Positions 32,036 through 56,179 are shown, counted from the stretch's first letter. The stretch is 64,000 nucleotides of DNA from Anaerolineales bacterium (GCA_019637805.1 JAHBVB010000001.1:73875-137874); one strand, 5' to 3'. The notes: generated from the sequence alone by a model not told the origin. Numbers and translations: made by a program.

Positions 32036-32074
32036 TTTGCTCGATCGCTGGTTGAGCCAGCGATCGAGCAAGTC

Positions 32075-32097
32075 AGCGCTGTCACAGGCGCTTTTTT
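32075..32097 (+). terminator. putative expression-platform terminator of the preQ1 leader
   Basis: AGCGC...GCGCT stem followed by T6. It is preceded by a perfect 15-bp hairpin at 32037-32071. Confidence 0.45.
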
Positions 32098-32114
32098 GTT
32101 GGCTGGAGCATGTG

Positions 32115-32747
32115 ATGACCAAAGAGACTCAAAACAGCTTATCGACCTTGGCGATCATCGTGATCGCCAGTTACATCGCCGCTCAAATGCTGGCGGATGT
32201 GGCCAGCATCAAGATCGGCCTGCTGGGCAGCCTGGCGGTCGACATGGGCACCTTCATTTACCCGATCACCTTCACCCTGCGTGACCTGGTACACAAGGTG
32301 CTGGGTCGCCAGGCCGCCCGCACCCTGGTGCTGGCGGCCGGCGGCATTAACCTGCTGATGGCCGCCTACCTGATGTGGGCGGCAGCCTTCCCCAGCGACC
32401 CAGTCTGGGGCCTGGGCGTCGAATTCAGTGCCCTGCTGGGGCCAGTGTGGCGCATCGTACTGGCCTCAATTGCAGCGGAAGTGGTCAGTGAGCTGGTGGA
32501 TACCGAGATCTATCACTGGTTCGTGACCAGAATTACGCAGCGCTACCAATGGGCGCGGGTGCTACTGAGCAACAGCGTCAGCGTGCCGGTGGACAACCTG
32601 ATCTTCTCGATCGGTGCGTTTGGCTGGGCGCTGCCCTGGCCCACAGTGTGGAGCATCTTCCTGGTCAACTTGCTGGTCAAGTACGGCATCACCCTGCTCA
32701 GTCTGCCGCTGATCTACCTGGCGCCCGACAAACAAGCTGGACAATAA
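32115..32747 (+). CDS. yhhQ: queuosine precursor transporter (YhhQ/COG1738)
   Basis: IASYIAAQMLADVASIKIGLLGSLAVDMGTFIYPITFTLRDLVHK. GGAG RBS sits before ATG 32115. Confidence 0.8.
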   Translation: MTKETQNSLSTLAIIVIASYIAAQMLADVASIKIGLLGSLAVDMGTFIYPITFTLRDLVHKVLGRQAARTLVLAAGGINLLMAAYLMWAAAFPSDPVWGLGVEFSALLGPVWRIVLASIAAEVVSELVDTEIYHWFVTRITQRYQWARVLLSNSVSVPVDNLIFSIGAFGWALPWPTVWSIFLVNLLVKYGITLLSLPLIYLAPDKQAGQ

Positions 32748-32953: not shown

Positions 32954-32991
32954 AACAAAGAGCCTGCATGAAGATCATGCAGGCTCTTGTT
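32954..32991. terminator. intrinsic terminator downstream of aspS
   Basis: 14-bp stem AAGAGCCTGCATGA/TCATGCAGGCTCTT, followed on the minus strand by TTTGTTTTAAT. Confidence 0.75.
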
Positions 32992-33009: not shown

Positions 33010-34782
33010 TTACTTGGCCGCCACCACCTTGATGTGCAGGTCTTTGAGCTGCTGCTCGTCGGCAGGTGTCGGCGCGTCGGCCATTACATCCCGGGCGGCC
33101 TGGTTCTTGGGGAAGGCGATCACCTCGCGGATGCTCTGCTCGTCGGCGAAGAGCATCACCAGGCGATCCAGGCCGGAGGCGATGCCGCCGTGCGGCGGCG
33201 CGCCGTATTCGAAAGCGTCCAGCATGTGGCCGAAGCGCTCCTGGGCCACTTCGGGCGTCAGGCCGATCAGCTTGAAGATGCGCGACTGCAGCTCGCGCTC
33301 GTGGATACGGATGGAACCGCCGCAGACTTCGATGTTGTTGAGCACCATGTCGTATTGCGCCCCGCGCATATTGGCCGGGTCGCTTTCGACCATGTGAATG
33401 TCTTCCGGCATCGGTGAAGTGAAGGGGTGTTGGCTGGCTTCCCAGCGGCTCTCCTCTTCGTCCCAGAAGGCGAAGGGGAAATCGATCACCCAGCAGAAAG
33501 CCAGCAGGTCGGGGTCCAGCAGGTTGAGCTTTTCGGCCAGGTGCACGCGCAGGCGGCCCAGGGCGGTGAAGACCACCTCCGGCTTGTCCGCCACGAAGAG
33601 CAGCAGGTCGCCCGGTTGCGCATCCAGCTGGGTCTTGAGCTCGGCCAGCTTCTCCGGGGCGAGGAACTTGCTGAACGAGGAGCGTTCTTCGCCTTCGGGC
33701 GTGATCGCCAAGTAGGCCAGGCCTTTGGCGCCGAAGTCCTTGACATAATCTGTAAGGGCGTCGATCTCCTTGCGGCTGTAGCCGCCCAGGCCGCGGGCAT
33801 TGATGGCGCGCACGTGCCCGTCGGAAGCCAGGGCATCTTCGAAGACTTTGAAGCCGGAGCCGGCCGCCCAGCCGCTGAGGTCCTGCAGTTCCATGCCAAA
33901 GCGCATATCCGGGTTGTCTTTGCCAAAGCGTTGCATGGCCTCCTTGTAGCTGAGGCGCGGCCAGGGCGTGGCCAGCAAGCGTTTGTGCGGCAGCAGTTCC
34001 TGCACCATAGCGGTGTACATGGTCTCCATCAGGTTCATCACGTCATCGCGCTCAACGAAAGACATCTCAATGTCGAGCTGGGTGAACTCCGCCTGGCGAT
34101 CGCCGCGCAGGTCCTCGTCACGGAAGCAGCGGGCGATCTGGAAGTAACGCTCATACCCGGCGACCATCAGCAGCTGCTTGAGCTGCTGTGGGGATTGCGG
34201 CAGGGCGTAAAATTCGCCAGGGTGCACACGCGAAGGCACCAGGTAATCACGGGCGCCTTCCGGCGTGGTCTTGAACAGGATCGGCGTCTCAATTTCGAGA
34301 AAGCCTTCCTTGTCGAGATAGTCACGGATGAACTTGATCACGCGGTGGCGCAATTCCAGGTTGGCCTGCATGCGCGGGCGGCGCAGATCCAGATAGCGGT
34401 ATTTGAGGCGCGTGTTCTCGTCGACCTCTTCTTCTTTATTGATCAAAAAGGGCGGGGTCTTGGACGGGTTGAGGATCTTGACCTCGCTGACCGCCACTTC
34501 GATTTCGCCGGTGCTCATCTCCGGGTTGGTCATGCCCTCCGGGCGGGGGCGCACCACGCCGGTAACCTGCAGCACCCATTCGCTGCGCACAGGCTCAAAA
34601 GCCGTGTGGGCTTCAGGCGCCGCCTCCGGGTCCGAGACGGTCTGCACCAGGCCAAAACGGTCACGCAAGTCAATAAAGGTCAGACCGCCGTGGTCGCGGC
34701 GGCGGTGCACCCAGCCGGCCAGGGTCACGGTCTGGCCGGCGTTGGCGGCGGTCAACTCTCCGCAGGTGTGTGTCTTATACAT
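33010..34782 (-). CDS. aspS: aspartate--tRNA ligase (bacterial type)
   Basis: [44 protein letters not shown]...[18 protein letters not shown]...GGSIRIH...[15 protein letters not shown]. Confidence 0.95.
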
Positions 34783-34810
34783 AAGTTCTCCTTAGTGTGC
34801 AGCGGCCCAG

Positions 34811-34840
34811 AAAAACAAAACGCCCGGCGGGTGCCGGGCG
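34811..34840 (-). terminator. intrinsic terminator inside the aspS leader (attenuator)
   Basis: CGCCCGGC-ACCC-GCCGGGCG (8 G-C pairs) followed by TTTTGTTTTT. It ends 28 nt before the aspS ATG. Confidence 0.7.
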
Positions 34841-34859
34841 AGAGGAGACTTGGTTGGGT

Positions 34860-34940
34860 TTAGTGCCCAAGCAAGGTCAATCCCGCCCGGAAAAGGGCGT
34901 TATTGTCCTCGTTATTGTTGTTCAGCAGGCTTGCATGCAT
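34860..34940 (-). CDS. putative 26-codon leader peptide MHASLLNNNNEDNNALFRAGLTLLGH
   Basis: My translation of the minus strand. The ATG lies 7 nt after the -10 box, and six of eight consecutive codons are Asn. It is too short for the ORF track. Confidence 0.4.
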   Translation of the reverse strand: MHASLLNNNNEDNNALFRAGLTLLGH

Positions 34941-34946
34941 TTTGGC

Positions 34947-34955
34947 ATTATAGCA
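34947..34955 (-). promoter_or_regulatory. extended -10 promoter TGCTATAAT
   Basis: Minus strand 34955-34947, then GCCAAA, then ATG (34940). Confidence 0.5.
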
Positions 34956-35008: not shown

Positions 35009-35335
35009 ATGTCAAATAAATGGAGCAAGGCGATATTGGGTTTGGTGCAGGTAGCCGATATTGCCGTGCATGTCGCTACAGAGCAGGTGGAGCCGCTGCG
35101 CATCGCGGCCAGCCTCATCATCCTGGGCTGGTTGGCTGCCCGCAGCCGCGGCCAGGCGCAAACCCGCGCCAGCCAGCTGACTGTGATTGGCGCCTATCTC
35201 GCTCTGAACCTGGCCTTCCTGGCGCAGGCCGGTCTGACCAATCCGGATCAAGGCGGCCAGCTGCGCGTGCTGCTTTTGGTATTCGTCTTGGTGACGCTGG
35301 GGCTGGCGGAATGGTTGCAGCGCCAACAAAAATAG
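35009..35335 (+). CDS. small hypothetical membrane protein
   Basis: GCAGGAG RBS then ATG 35009. 108 aa, 3-4 TM helices. Confidence 0.45.
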   Translation: MSNKWSKAILGLVQVADIAVHVATEQVEPLRIAASLIILGWLAARSRGQAQTRASQLTVIGAYLALNLAFLAQAGLTNPDQGGQLRVLLLVFVLVTLGLAEWLQRQQK

Positions 35336-35366
35336 CGAGCTGAGCTCGCTATTCTCTCTTTGAAGG

Positions 35367-35450
35367 TAGCGCGGGTGGGAATCGAACCCACAAGAGGTTG
35401 CCCTCGGAGGATTTTAAGTCCCCTGCGTCTGCCAGTTCCGCCACCGCGCC
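35367..35450 (-). tRNA. tRNA-Leu (anticodon TAA)
   Basis: Reverse complement reads GGCGCGGTGGCGGAACTGGCAGACGCAGGGGACTTAAAATCCTCCGAGGGCAACCTCTTGTGGGTTCGATTCCCACCCGCGCTA. It has a long variable arm and anticodon loop CTTAAAA. Confidence 0.9.
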
Positions 35451-53440: not shown

Positions 53441-54897
53441 GCGCCGCCCCCGATCAGATGGCCCAGTTCGTTCAAGCTGGTCTGGCGCGCGTCCAGCAGG
53501 CGCGACATGCGCCCACCAGAGAAGACCGCGATGCGGTCACTGCGCTCCAAGAGCTCGTCCAGGTCGGCGGAGAGGAACAGGATGGCGGCGCCCTCGCGGC
53601 GGCGCTGATCCAACTGCTGCCAGATCCAATCGCTGGAGCGCAGGTCCAGGCCGCGAGTGGGATGCTCGGCCAGGATCAACTGCGCATCGTCGGGCAGCAG
53701 GCCAAACAAGACCCGCTGCTGGTTCCCACCGGAGAGTTCCTCCACCCGGCTGCCGGGCCGGGCGACGATCTGGTATTGCTTGATCCGTTGGCGGGTTTGG
53801 GAGCGGCTGGCGGCGCGGTCCACGAACAGGCCGTTCTGGCTGACCAGGGCCATGTGCTCCGCCAGGGTCATGCCGCTGACCAGGCCTTCTTCCAGGCGGC
53901 CAGCGGCCAGGTAATGCAGGCCCAGTTTGCGGGCGGTCAAATAGTCCAGGCGGGGCTGCCGCTGGCCCGCCAGGCGCAGCTCGCCGCCGGCCAGCGGAAG
54001 CAGGCCGGCGCAGGCCCGCAGCAGCAGTTCCTGCCCGTTGCCATCCAGGCCGGCCAGACCCAGCACTTCGCCGGCGTGCAGGCTGAGGTCCACGGGTTGC
54101 AGCTCCAGGCGCGGCGTGCGCACCACCAGGTCACGCAACTCCAATTGGGGTGTGCCCGCCGCCGGGCGCGGCCGGAGGGGGCGCTGGGGCAGTTCGGCAA
54201 ACATCAGGTTCACCAGCTTCCGGCTGGGGCAAGGCAGCTTGGCGCCGCCCACATAGTCGCCCTGGCGCAGCACGATGGCCTGGTCGCACAGCTCCTGCAC
54301 TTCTTCCAGCTTATGCGACACCAAGATGAGGGTTTTGCGCTCCTTGCGGGCCAGGTCACGCAGGGAATTGAACAATACGGTCTTCTGGTCAGCGCTGATG
54401 CCGGTGGTCGGCTCGTCCAGGATCAGCAACTGCGCGCCGCCCGAGAGCAGGCGCAGCAGTTCCAGCTGTTGGCGCTCGCCCAGGCTGAGGTCCTCGATGC
54501 GCTCGTGTGGATGGATTTCAAAACCATAGCGCTGGCCCAATTGGCGCAGCTGGTCCGCGGCGTGCCGCCGCGGGATCGCCAGGCCGCCCGGCCGGCCGAG
54601 CAGGTAGTTTTCCAACACGGTGAAGGGCGGCACATCCAGCGGGTCCTGGTAGAGCATGCCGATGCCGGCCGCCAGCGCATCCAGCGGGGAGCGGAATTGC
54701 TGGGGCACAGCGTCCAGAAGAATGCGGCCGCTGTCCGGCGTTTGGTAGCCGGAGAGGATCTTCATCAGCGTGCTTTTGCCTGCCCCGTTCTCGCCGAGCA
54801 ACCCGTAGATCCGCCCGGCTTCAAAGGTGAGGCTGATGCCCCGGTTGGCTTGCACTGGGCCAAAACTTTTAGAGATCTTGTCGAGTTCTACGCGCAT
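53437..54897 (-). CDS. ABC transporter ATP-binding protein (tandem ATPase domains)
   Basis: GLLGENGAGKSTLMKIL, LSLGERQQLELLRLL and a second NBD with LSGGNQQRV. Confidence 0.9.
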   Translation of the reverse strand: MRVELDKISKSFGPVQANRGISLTFEAGRIYGLLGENGAGKSTLMKILSGYQTPDSGRILLDAVPQQFRSPLDALAAGIGMLYQDPLDVPPFTVLENYLLGRPGGLAIPRRHAADQLRQLGQRYGFEIHPHERIEDLSLGERQQLELLRLLSGGAQLLILDEPTTGISADQKTVLFNSLRDLARKERKTLILVSHKLEEVQELCDQAIVLRQGDYVGGAKLPCPSRKLVNLMFAELPQRPLRPRPAAGTPQLELRDLVVRTPRLELQPVDLSLHAGEVLGLAGLDGNGQELLLRACAGLLPLAGGELRLAGQRQPRLDYLTARKLGLHYLAAGRLEEGLVSGMTLAEHMALVSQNGLFVDRAASRSQTRQRIKQYQIVARPGSRVEELSGGNQQRVLFGLLPDDAQLILAEHPTRGLDLRSSDWIWQQLDQRRREGAAILFLSADLDELLERSDRIAVFSGGRMSRLLDARQTSLNELGHLIGGGA

Positions 54898-54924
54898 GGC
54901 TTACCTGCACCTCAGCGGAAAGAA

Positions 54925-54962
54925 AAGCAGACCTGGGGCTCAATTGAGCCCCAGGTCTGCTT
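54925..54962 (-). promoter_or_regulatory. intercistronic 17-bp hairpin between binding-protein and ATPase genes
   Basis: AAGCAGACCTGGGGCTC-AATT-GAGCCCCAGGTCTGCTT. Confidence 0.6.
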
Positions 54963-54973
54963 GGGGAAATGCG

Positions 54974-56179
54974 TTATTGGCTCTCGCCCATGCCCTGCAG
55001 CAAGGCGGGCAGGTACCAGATCTGCTCGTCGGTGGCGCTTTGGCCGGCAGCCACATACACGGTACCGTCGCGCAGGTTGACCGGGCCGGCCCACAGGTCC
55101 ACTTCGCCAGCCGCTAGCTTGGCGATGAAGTCGTGCAGGTCGCTTGCGGCCTGGCCTTGCAGCGCCGGGCCGTCCAACCAACCCACATCGGTCTGGCCGG
55201 GGTCGGTCAGCGCGTCCCAGTTGGCGGCGTTCCAATCCCAGCTCTGCTCCCAAGTGCCAGCGGCCACGGACTCAGCCAGGGCCAGGTAGGCCGGACCCCA
55301 GCTAAAGAAGGGCACGCCCAGGCAGAAGGCCGGCGCGCTGTCGCAGGCGTTGAGATAGTCGTAGGGCACAGCCAGGATGGCTTCATCGGCGGCAGCGCGC
55401 TGGGCAGTGACGTCGATGGCTTCGGTGGTGTCAATGCCGCTCATGATCACGTCGACACCCGTATCGAAGAAGTTGTTGGCCACTTCGGTGGGGTCCAGGG
55501 TCACGCCCGGGATATTGAACCAGAAGCCGATCCAGGTCACGTCGAACTTAAGCGCTGCCGGATCCTCGCCGCGATAGGTTTCGTAGCAGTGGCGGGCGCC
55601 CAGGTAGGCCGAGGCGGTCAGGCGGATGGTCTCGTGGTTGATCAGCGGGCCGACATAGCCGATGTGGCCGGTTTGGGTATTGAGGGCTGCGGCGCAGCCG
55701 GCGATGGCCTTCATGTCTTCCATGCGGCCCATCACATTGCCCAGGTTGGCCGGGGCTTCACCGGTGCGAGCGTCATCCCCGGAGACATTAATGAAGACCA
55801 CTTCGGGATGGGAGGCAGCCACCGTAGTGGTGTCTTCCTCGAATTCGTCCGAAGTGGTGATGATCAGCTTGGCGCCCTGCTCCACCATATCGGCGACCAC
55901 ACTGGCCACCGTGGCTTCCGGCTTGTCAGCCGGGTTAAGGGACTCAAAGACGATCACCCGGCTGCCGGGCAGATGCTCTTCCACGAAGAGACCGCCTTCG
56001 TAGTGGGCCTGGCTCCAGCCATGATCGTTGCGCGGGCCTACCAGGATCAGGCCGATGGTCAGGCCTTCGGCGGCATCGTCGCCGGCAGCCGGATCCGGCT
56101 GGCTGGCCGCTGGGGCGCAGGCGCCCAGGATCAGGGTCAAGCTGAGCAGTACAGCAAATACAACCTTTTTATGAAACAT
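54974..56179 (-). CDS. BMP-family (Med/PnrA-like) ABC substrate-binding lipoprotein
   Basis: MFHKKVVFAVLLSLTLILGAC lipobox; GLILVGPRNDHGWSQAHYEG. I placed the start at ATG 56179, which follows GGAGGAAG. Confidence 0.85.
   Translation of the reverse strand: MFHKKVVFAVLLSLTLILGACAPAASQPDPAAGDDAAEGLTIGLILVGPRNDHGWSQAHYEGGLFVEEHLPGSRVIVFESLNPADKPEATVASVVADMVEQGAKLIITTSDEFEEDTTTVAASHPEVVFINVSGDDARTGEAPANLGNVMGRMEDMKAIAGCAAALNTQTGHIGYVGPLINHETIRLTASAYLGARHCYETYRGEDPAALKFDVTWIGFWFNIPGVTLDPTEVANNFFDTGVDVIMSGIDTTEAIDVTAQRAAADEAILAVPYDYLNACDSAPAFCLGVPFFSWGPAYLALAESVAAGTWEQSWDWNAANWDALTDPGQTDVGWLDGPALQGQAASDLHDFIAKLAAGEVDLWAGPVNLRDGTVYVAAGQSATDEQIWYLPALLQGMGESQ

Follow-up and report, generated by a model that had tools for sequence, protein, structure and literature searches.

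A leader of ~130 nucleotides (nt), counted from -10 box to U-tract, precedes aspS, the gene of an aspartyl-tRNA synthetase (AspRS), on the minus strand of a 64,000-nt stretch of DNA from an Anaerolineales bacterium of the phylum Chloroflexota (the whole stretch is called the window below). This leader is very probably a translated, Asn/Asp-sensing transcription attenuator of aspS, of the ribosome-mediated, leader-peptide type. It combines a short open reading frame (ORF) rich in Asn and Asp codons with a set of alternative helices that ends in an intrinsic terminator immediately before aspS, and the same architecture is found in ~44 of 80 related species genomes, these ~44 being of the class Anaerolineae. 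A first-pass annotation of the window had proposed this reading; its computationally testable predictions all held, and the leader is predicted to respond to tRNA charging. The elements of the leader and its target gene are:

34947-34955, minus strand: extended -10 promoter TGCTATAAT; the predicted transcription start site is the A of the leader ATG
34860-34940, minus strand: leader ORF MHASLLNNNNEDNNALFRAGLTLLGH, 26 codons and a TAA stop (34862-34860)
34899-34922, minus strand: regulatory codons 7-14, AAC AAC AAT AAC GAG GAC AAT AAC, reading N N N N E D N N
34895-34899, minus strand: segment 1, CGCCC, the anti-antiterminator partner of GGGCG in segment 2 (34888-34884)
34881-34890, minus strand: segment 2, CCGGGCGGGA, with segment 1 or segment 3 as alternative partners
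34849-34875, minus strand: middle hairpin CUUGCUUGGG-CACUAAA-CCCAACCAAG, enclosed by the antiterminator, with the leader stop codon in its loop
34834-34843, minus strand: segment 3, UCUCGCCCGG, partner of segment 2 in the antiterminator and of segment 4 in the terminator
34811-34840, minus strand: predicted intrinsic terminator with an all-GC stem, CGCCCGGC/GCCGGGCG and loop ACCC (34840-34821), then the U-tract TTTTGTTTTT (34820-34811)
34788-34793, minus strand: Shine-Dalgarno sequence of aspS, AAGGAG, as read from the sequence
33010-34782, minus strand: aspS, encoding a 590-residue bacterial-type AspRS with ATG at 34782 and residues His31 and Gly83

The elements reported in the first-pass annotation are all present on the minus strand at their coordinates; its list lacked the middle hairpin (34875-34849) and a second promoter-like site further upstream (35015-34986, see below). 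The first base of segment 1 is also the last base of the final Asn codon. The aspS product matches NCBIfam NF001750 with 841 bits.

In the proposed mechanism, transcription from the extended -10 box would start at or adjacent to the leader AUG, and the 26 codons would be translated from a leaderless message by a ribosome coupled to the polymerase. When Asn-tRNA(Asn) and Asp-tRNA(Asp) are ample, this ribosome would pass codons 7-14, cover segment 2, and then halt at the stop codon, which falls within the ~35 nt that lie between segments 2 and 3; segment 2, now behind the ribosome, would be free for segment 1. Segment 3 would thereby be released for segment 4, and the polymerase would terminate at the U-tract, 28 nt before aspS. 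Upon scarcity of either charged tRNA, the ribosome would stall on the Asn/Asp (N/D) run, covering segment 1 and not segment 2. Segment 2 would then pair with the nascent segment 3, the terminator would be blocked, and aspS would be transcribed.

The Asn/Asp codon run and its conservation

Chance is excluded as the origin of the codon run to which the first-pass annotation had drawn attention. A run with at least seven N/D codons in eight occurs at a single site across all six frames of the 64-kb window, and when the intergenic region was shuffled with its dinucleotides preserved, seven in eight were attained in 0/5000 shuffles. Conservation was followed in 80 species-representative loci retrieved with the AspRS protein, all from Chloroflexota-like metagenome-assembled genomes, the nearest being Anaerolineales. 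At least five N/D codons in eight are found upstream of aspS on the sense strand of 25 of 79 loci, against 0/79 on the antisense strand and 0.76% of shuffles. The runs of relatives read, for example, DNNNLDNN, NNNDNNN, NNNNDNDD, or NNNDNDNND, and synonymous swaps between AAC and AAT and between GAC and GAT distinguish relatives within the run. Asn dominates: with 163 codons in the regulatory runs, it exceeds Asp (56 codons) ~3:1, and Asn makes up 15.3% of the leader residues versus 2.6% of those of the AspRS proteins, a six-fold excess, whereas Asp is enriched only locally.

The genomes with the leader architecture have AspRS identities from 98% down to 59%, and the order of elements is conserved: a TGnTAnAAT box, a short ORF with the N/D run, a G-rich segment 2 of the GGGCG type, a stop codon, and a terminator. 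Complete genomes among the carriers of the leader include those of L009 (CP075367.1), L028 (CP070764.1), and L022 (OY776212.2). Mini-ORFs and both complementarities, 2:3 and 3:4, were thus recovered in the relatives, where the first-pass annotation had suggested looking for them. The short ORFs of 45 leaders are 18-39 codons long (median 29). Their N/D frame is open from the ATG in 45/45 cases, and across these regions the other two frames are interrupted by 47 and 117 stops. The stop codon precedes segment 3 by a median of 15 nt and, in 37 of 44 leaders, by 10-22 nt, a range reached by the first stops of the other two frames in 3/44 and 5/44. An open frame and a conserved stop position are signatures of translation and not of an RNA motif. 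The distance from the end of the run to segment 2 is 0-14 nt in all leaders, with a median of 7 nt. Frame, stop position, and run-to-segment-2 distance are conserved in the way that ribosome-mediated attenuation requires.

Could the run merely be a slow or unstructured stretch in a general sensor of translation capacity, in which any slowed or failed leading ribosome would switch the terminator? Several lineages are indeed weakly enriched, with three to four N/D codons in eight, and at equilibrium the antiterminator forms with a ribosome anywhere upstream of segment 2. Such a sensor is nevertheless unlikely: the Asn/Asp codons are conserved while the residues around them are free, the enrichment is limited to Asn and Asp and is not seen on the antisense strand or in shuffles, and the run always ends at the short distance before segment 2 given above. 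Moreover, Asn and Asp are the two amino acids whose tRNAs would be charged by a non-discriminating AspRS.

Another possibility is that the mini-ORF and terminator form an independent gene, for a small protein or a small RNA (sRNA), with aspS served by a promoter of its own. The unit does own a promoter and a terminator, and terminated attenuator RNAs act in trans in other bacteria (rnTrpL). Against this stand the 28 nt, mostly Shine-Dalgarno sequence, that separate the U-tract from the aspS ATG, and the leader peptides, which are unconserved apart from the N/D run and the residues dictated by the RNA stems. Poor conservation of the peptide sequence is expected of leader peptides. Since the genes flanking aspS differ among loci, the leader element travels with aspS, and it is always linked to aspS whatever gene lies upstream. 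An independent gene is thus exceedingly improbable.

Alternative helices and the position of the ribosome

The attenuator proposed here depends on helices that compete for segments 2 and 3. In the window, CCGGGCGGGA (34890-34881) pairs with TCTCGCCCGG (34843-34834) over 10 bp including one G-U, at -20.8 kcal/mol (z = -4.9 versus shuffles), and the terminator has an energy of -17.4 kcal/mol. The unconstrained fold of the leader (-61.5 kcal/mol) beats 200/200 shuffles (z = -3.85) and contains the 1:2 hairpin (5 bp), the middle hairpin, and the terminator. The three pairings of the first-pass annotation are all present in the sequence, and CGCCC with GGGCG is paired in the minimum-free-energy fold.

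In the relatives, the best duplex of the region after the run with the 5' arm of the terminator is, locus by locus, a helix of the 2:3 type that overlaps this arm. Its sequence changes with the lineage (CCGGGCGGGA/UCUCGCCCGG, CGUUGGGCGA/UCGCCCAACG, CGGGCGUGU/ACACGCCCG, GCGUCGGGUGGU/AUCGCCCGAUGC), and its pairing is kept. On the MAFFT alignment, 75.9% of the 2:3 positions pair, versus 36-48% in slid registers; on the covariance-model alignment, the values are 77.7% versus 36-49%. Seven of the ten pairs have changed on both sides, with a covariation score exceeding that of 500/500 shuffles (covariance-model alignment), and cognate segment-2/segment-3 pairs are stabler than swapped ones in 10,000/10,000 permutations. 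To judge from these alignments, the 2:3 antiterminator is maintained by compensatory changes despite nucleotide divergence. The 3:4 terminator helix is likewise conserved (82.9% paired versus 32-43% slid), and 43 of the 44 homologous leaders that were scanned have a terminator at the corresponding site. Applied to seven close leaders aligned with MAFFT, RNAalifold detected the terminator and none of the 1:2, middle-hairpin, and 2:3 helices, since the variable middle part is misaligned by MAFFT; per-locus duplex searches and the covariance-model alignment were used in its place.

With the 2:3 helix as its basis, a covariance model detects the leader of aspS in the window and at 43 loci; across 610 kb, it has hardly any other hits. 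Among its further matches, L002 2710-2813 was rejected as merely the terminator of an upstream gene, and L041 1417-1514 and L006 1442-1516 as a decayed duplicate of the leader. This second leader (L041 1393-1514, L006 1442-1516) has an ORF reading MLWPVIVDSNNPQRTGCHCLAIR up to its stop and a weakened terminator; a tRNA-Leu(taa) gene follows it after ~40 nt, and the true leader is 1.4 kb downstream of it. In L006, the tRNA-Leu(taa) homologue (1557-1642) is given by ARAGORN the four-base anticodon 'taaa' in an enlarged loop, which could reflect an assembly error or an unusual tRNA. A separate case of decay may be seen in L014 (AspRS 75% identical), where TGCTATAAT and a GGGCGATTTACTTTT remnant are kept ~100 nt upstream of aspS and the mini-ORF consists only of MRPRVSN and a stop, with no N/D run; it looks like a lineage with a decayed attenuator.

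The effect of a ribosome was modelled by folding with a masked footprint that extends 12 nt beyond the first base of the A-site codon. Segment 1 falls within the modelled footprint of a ribosome stalled at codons 12-14. In the window, the terminator is predicted with a probability of 0.98 in the absence of a ribosome; the value drops to 0.35 for an A site at codons 12-13 and is back at 0.98 for a ribosome at the stop codon. In several relatives it falls to ~0 with a ribosome on their N/D codons. For modelled transcripts that end ahead of segment 4, the upstream pairing of segment 3 is ~0.9 while the ribosome has not yet passed the N/D run, and it is down to 0.1 two to three codons past the run, where segment 2 is covered. 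Ribosome-free full-length leaders give a terminator probability above 0.8 in 34 of 44 cases. Constrained and unconstrained folding, which the first-pass annotation had recommended, would thus let a stall on the N/D codons favour 2:3 and passage favour the terminator, and the switch is thermodynamically feasible. The gap from segment 2 to segment 3 is ~35 nt with the stop codon in its middle, which is about one ribosome footprint and suggests that the terminating ribosome may physically part the two segments.

The same terminator might be governed by another RNA sensor, be it T-box-like, a riboswitch, or an autoregulatory site bound by AspRS in the manner of thrS, with the ORF incidental. The leader is well structured, aspS is under T-box control in some Firmicutes, and a few T-boxes occur in Chloroflexi (PMC2494555). 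However, no Rfam family reaches its threshold in the leader, and the best matches are terminator look-alikes with E = 0.03. A T-box or riboswitch was rejected on searches at the gathering threshold and at E <= 10, which returned only AgvB, betaproteobacterial toxic sRNA, and CRISPR-repeat look-alikes; neither RF00230 (T-box) nor any other cis-regulatory family matched the leader even at E <= 10. The ~130 nt lack a T-box sequence, no aptamer-like structured region is conserved beyond the GGGCG/CGCCC switch core, and the conserved frame, start signals, and stop position would be needless in an RNA-only sensor. A sensor of this kind is accordingly very unlikely.

Start of the leader transcript, flanking genes, and weighing of the reading

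A TGnTAnAAT sequence lies upstream of the mini-ORF in most homologous leaders. In the window, 6 nt (GCCAAA) separate TGCTATAAT from the leader ATG (34940), and no Shine-Dalgarno sequence precedes the leader ORF. The ATG follows the -10 box by exactly 6 nt in 14 sequences, namely the window and 13 loci, with a varying spacer sequence, and by 7-9 nt in about six more loci; the remaining loci have untranslated regions of 20-37 nt with GAGG-like Shine-Dalgarno sequences. The leader transcript is therefore probably leaderless in the lineage of the window, an idea of the first-pass annotation to which the invariant spacing lends support. Some Chloroflexi have been predicted to use a leaderless signal of the TAtaaT type (PMC3160421).

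The second promoter-like site, TTGACA-18-TAGAAT at 35015-34986 (minus strand), is near-consensus and sigma-70-like, with 11/12 matches. It was rejected as a conserved promoter: its -35 hexamer is overlapped by the start codon of a divergent ORF, and in the nearest relative (L001, 98% identical) it is degraded to TTGTCA with a 20-nt spacer. In contrast, TGCTATAAT is kept across the family. The site may be a second promoter specific to the genome of the window, or a chance match. The surroundings of the leader comprise the following features:

35009-35335, plus strand: divergent small hydrophobic membrane ORF, 108 residues, beginning MSNKWSKAILGLV
35331-35353, both strands: bidirectional terminator, which ends both tRNA-Leu(taa) and the divergent ORF
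35365-35450: tRNA-Leu(taa), the upstream neighbour of aspS in the window
32960-32986, minus strand: predicted terminator of aspS itself, -20.6 kcal/mol
32037-32747, plus strand: queuosine-precursor transporter gene (TIGR00697 / Pfam Vut_1), convergent with aspS

The divergent 108-residue ORF has no match in Pfam or NCBIfam. Both upstream units end at the bidirectional terminator, so that transcription of aspS must originate within the 226-nt intergenic region, and this terminator is predicted to insulate the aspS leader from transcription arriving from upstream. With 28 nt left behind the U-tract, the earlier argument that there is no room for another promoter before aspS stands. At its other end, aspS has its own terminator and a convergent next gene, and is monocistronic. 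Queuosine modifies the tRNAs with a GUN anticodon (Asp, Asn, His, Tyr), which are the readers of the regulatory codons of the leader; the vicinity of the transporter gene may be a coincidence. Elsewhere in the window, a perfect 36-nt palindrome (AGCAGACCTGGGGCTCAATTGAGCCCCAGGTCTGCT, -35 kcal/mol) occupies positions 54926-54961, with a T-run after it on the minus strand. It is part of an ORF-like stretch (53458-55080, plus strand) without Pfam match.

Several points weigh against a translated attenuator. The 1:2 hairpin is short in the window, and the 1:2 pairing changes form between lineages. Equilibrium folding does not give a clean switch: a stall lowers the modelled terminator probability in the window to 0.35 at the lowest, and a ribosome-free transcript cut before segment 4 still favours 2:3 (0.87). 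From the latter it follows that default termination must rest on kinetics or on a translating ribosome and not on a strong 1:2 hairpin; folding makes no clear prediction for termination without translation. The codon signal is diluted in two subgroups, one with merely three to five N/D codons per eight (L024, L026-L031, L038), the other reading VVNNKDINP (L010-L013, L019, L022). Transcription from the promoter-like site at 35015-34986 would leave a 39-nt untranslated leader without a Shine-Dalgarno sequence. To our knowledge, neither transcription-translation coupling nor leaderless initiation has been documented in Anaerolineae. In a survey of 2011, no more than 4 of 12 Chloroflexi genomes were predicted to contain leaderless genes (PMC3160421).

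AspRS type, related systems, and significance

The Asn bias of the leader finds a counterpart in the enzyme. His31 and Gly83 (P. aeruginosa numbering) are said to have been implicated in the recognition of tRNA(Asn) by Bernard et al. in 2006. The N-terminal anticodon-binding domain of the AspRS has as its best match the Asp/Asn ligase of the Pseudomonas aeruginosa transamidosome, 4WJ3. The motifs RRRDHGG (H31) and RPEG..NP (G83) are common to the AspRS of the window and to the Asp/Asn-annotated ligases of P. aeruginosa and mycobacteria (4WJ3, 4RMF, 4O2D), whereas the Asp-only enzyme of T. thermophilus (1EFW/6HHV) has a Leu and a two-residue gap at these positions. His31 is present in nearly all leader-carrying loci. 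That the AspRS is non-discriminating, as the first-pass annotation had guessed, is supported by these signature residues and by the Asn-dominated leaders (163:56). Genes for gatCAB, asnS, asnA, or asnB were not found in the 64-kb window, in which nearly all larger ORFs were searched with Pfam and NCBIfam. In Dehalococcoides, the only member of the Chloroflexi for which the literature makes this statement, and in Actinobacteria, AsnRS is absent and the amidotransferase present (PMC2494555), and the indirect route to Asn-tRNA has been described (PMC2330236).

Taken with the Asp/Asn-type residues of the enzyme, the Asn-dominated run makes it most likely that the circuit would raise AspRS upon shortage of Asn-tRNA(Asn), and an induction of aspS under this condition is well motivated. 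We lean, if only slightly, towards a leader that chiefly counts Asn codons, with aspS set mainly by Asn-tRNA(Asn), which is the end product of the two-step route formed by a non-discriminating AspRS and GatCAB and not that of the nominal AspRS reaction. In one sub-family (L010-L013, L019, L022, L025), the leaders read VV(N/D)NKDINP, with Asn and Asp mixed with Lys and Ile codons, and position 83 of the AspRS is Glu or Asp and not Gly (RPAEM / RPEEM); enzyme specificity and leader codons could be shifting together.

Known leader-peptide attenuators are concentrated in Proteobacteria, Actinobacteria, and a few Firmicutes, mostly in front of biosynthetic operons. The aspS leader resembles the classical proteobacterial leaders, trpL, hisL, pheL, thrL, leuL, ilv, and that of E. 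coli pheST (pheM), in its short ORF with clustered regulatory codons, in its mutually exclusive antiterminator and terminator sharing one strand, and in its terminator just before the gene. The pheST leader also controls an aminoacyl-tRNA synthetase, and the runs of thrL and ilvL also mix codons of more than one amino acid. The aspS leader differs from the classical ones by its target gene, its Asn/Asp codons, its occurrence in Chloroflexota, its probably leaderless start, and its stop codon, which is placed after segment 2 in a hairpin enclosed by the antiterminator, and it has no sequence similarity to any Rfam leader family.

Outside these classical systems, His leaders of hisS paralogues or hisZ have been predicted in bacilli (Naville and Gautheret 2010, PMC2965389); they too precede synthetase-family genes in non-Proteobacteria and were found by comparative genomics, but involve another amino acid, gene, and phylum, and their ORFs are not leaderless. 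Leaderless sensory ORFs at the 5' end are known from mycobacteria, as polycysteine small ORFs (Canestrari et al., bioRxiv 10.1101/834739) and as the upstream ORF of the ilvB1 attenuator (PMC13236596). In the mycobacterial small ORFs, a codon run likewise reports the charging of one tRNA, in a host that uses the indirect Asn pathway; the Cys elements differ in that they act on translation, by unmasking a ribosome-binding site without an intrinsic terminator, and belong to biosynthetic operons. The T-box of Firmicutes aspS or hisS-aspS (PMC2494555) shares with the present leader the gene, the uncharged-tRNA signal, and antitermination at a leader terminator. It binds the tRNA directly and without translation, whereas the aspS leader of Anaerolineae would be a translated-ORF sensor, and would here take the place of the Firmicutes T-box.

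In agreement with the first-pass annotation, which knew of no such case, neither an aspS leader peptide nor an Asn-codon leader is described in the searchable full text, subscription journals being outside this coverage; literature searches on an aspS leader or attenuator returned only the generic label 'tRNA synthetase leader' in a Shewanella screen, and unrelated papers. The mechanism itself is textbook; its amino-acid specificity, the gene on which it acts, the phylum, its probably leaderless start, and its proposed link to tRNA-dependent asparagine synthesis are new. Mini-ORFs of this kind are missed by automated annotation, and the 6-nt spacing between -10 box and ATG is a useful hint at leaderless sensory ORFs outside Actinobacteria. 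The leader may also represent a compact natural switch of ~130 nt responsive to Asn and Asp.

For the poorly studied and mostly uncultured class Anaerolineae, the element adds a well-conserved attenuator family, placed on an essential synthetase, and with it an independent argument, drawn from sequence only, that these AspRS enzymes feed the tRNA-dependent asparagine pathway. If the reading is true, this would be the first asparagine-sensing leader peptide and the first leader-peptide control of aspS, as well as the first classical attenuator family documented in Chloroflexota, acting on a leaderless message. The codon make-up of the leader could then provide a genomic read-out of the non-discriminating status of AspRS.

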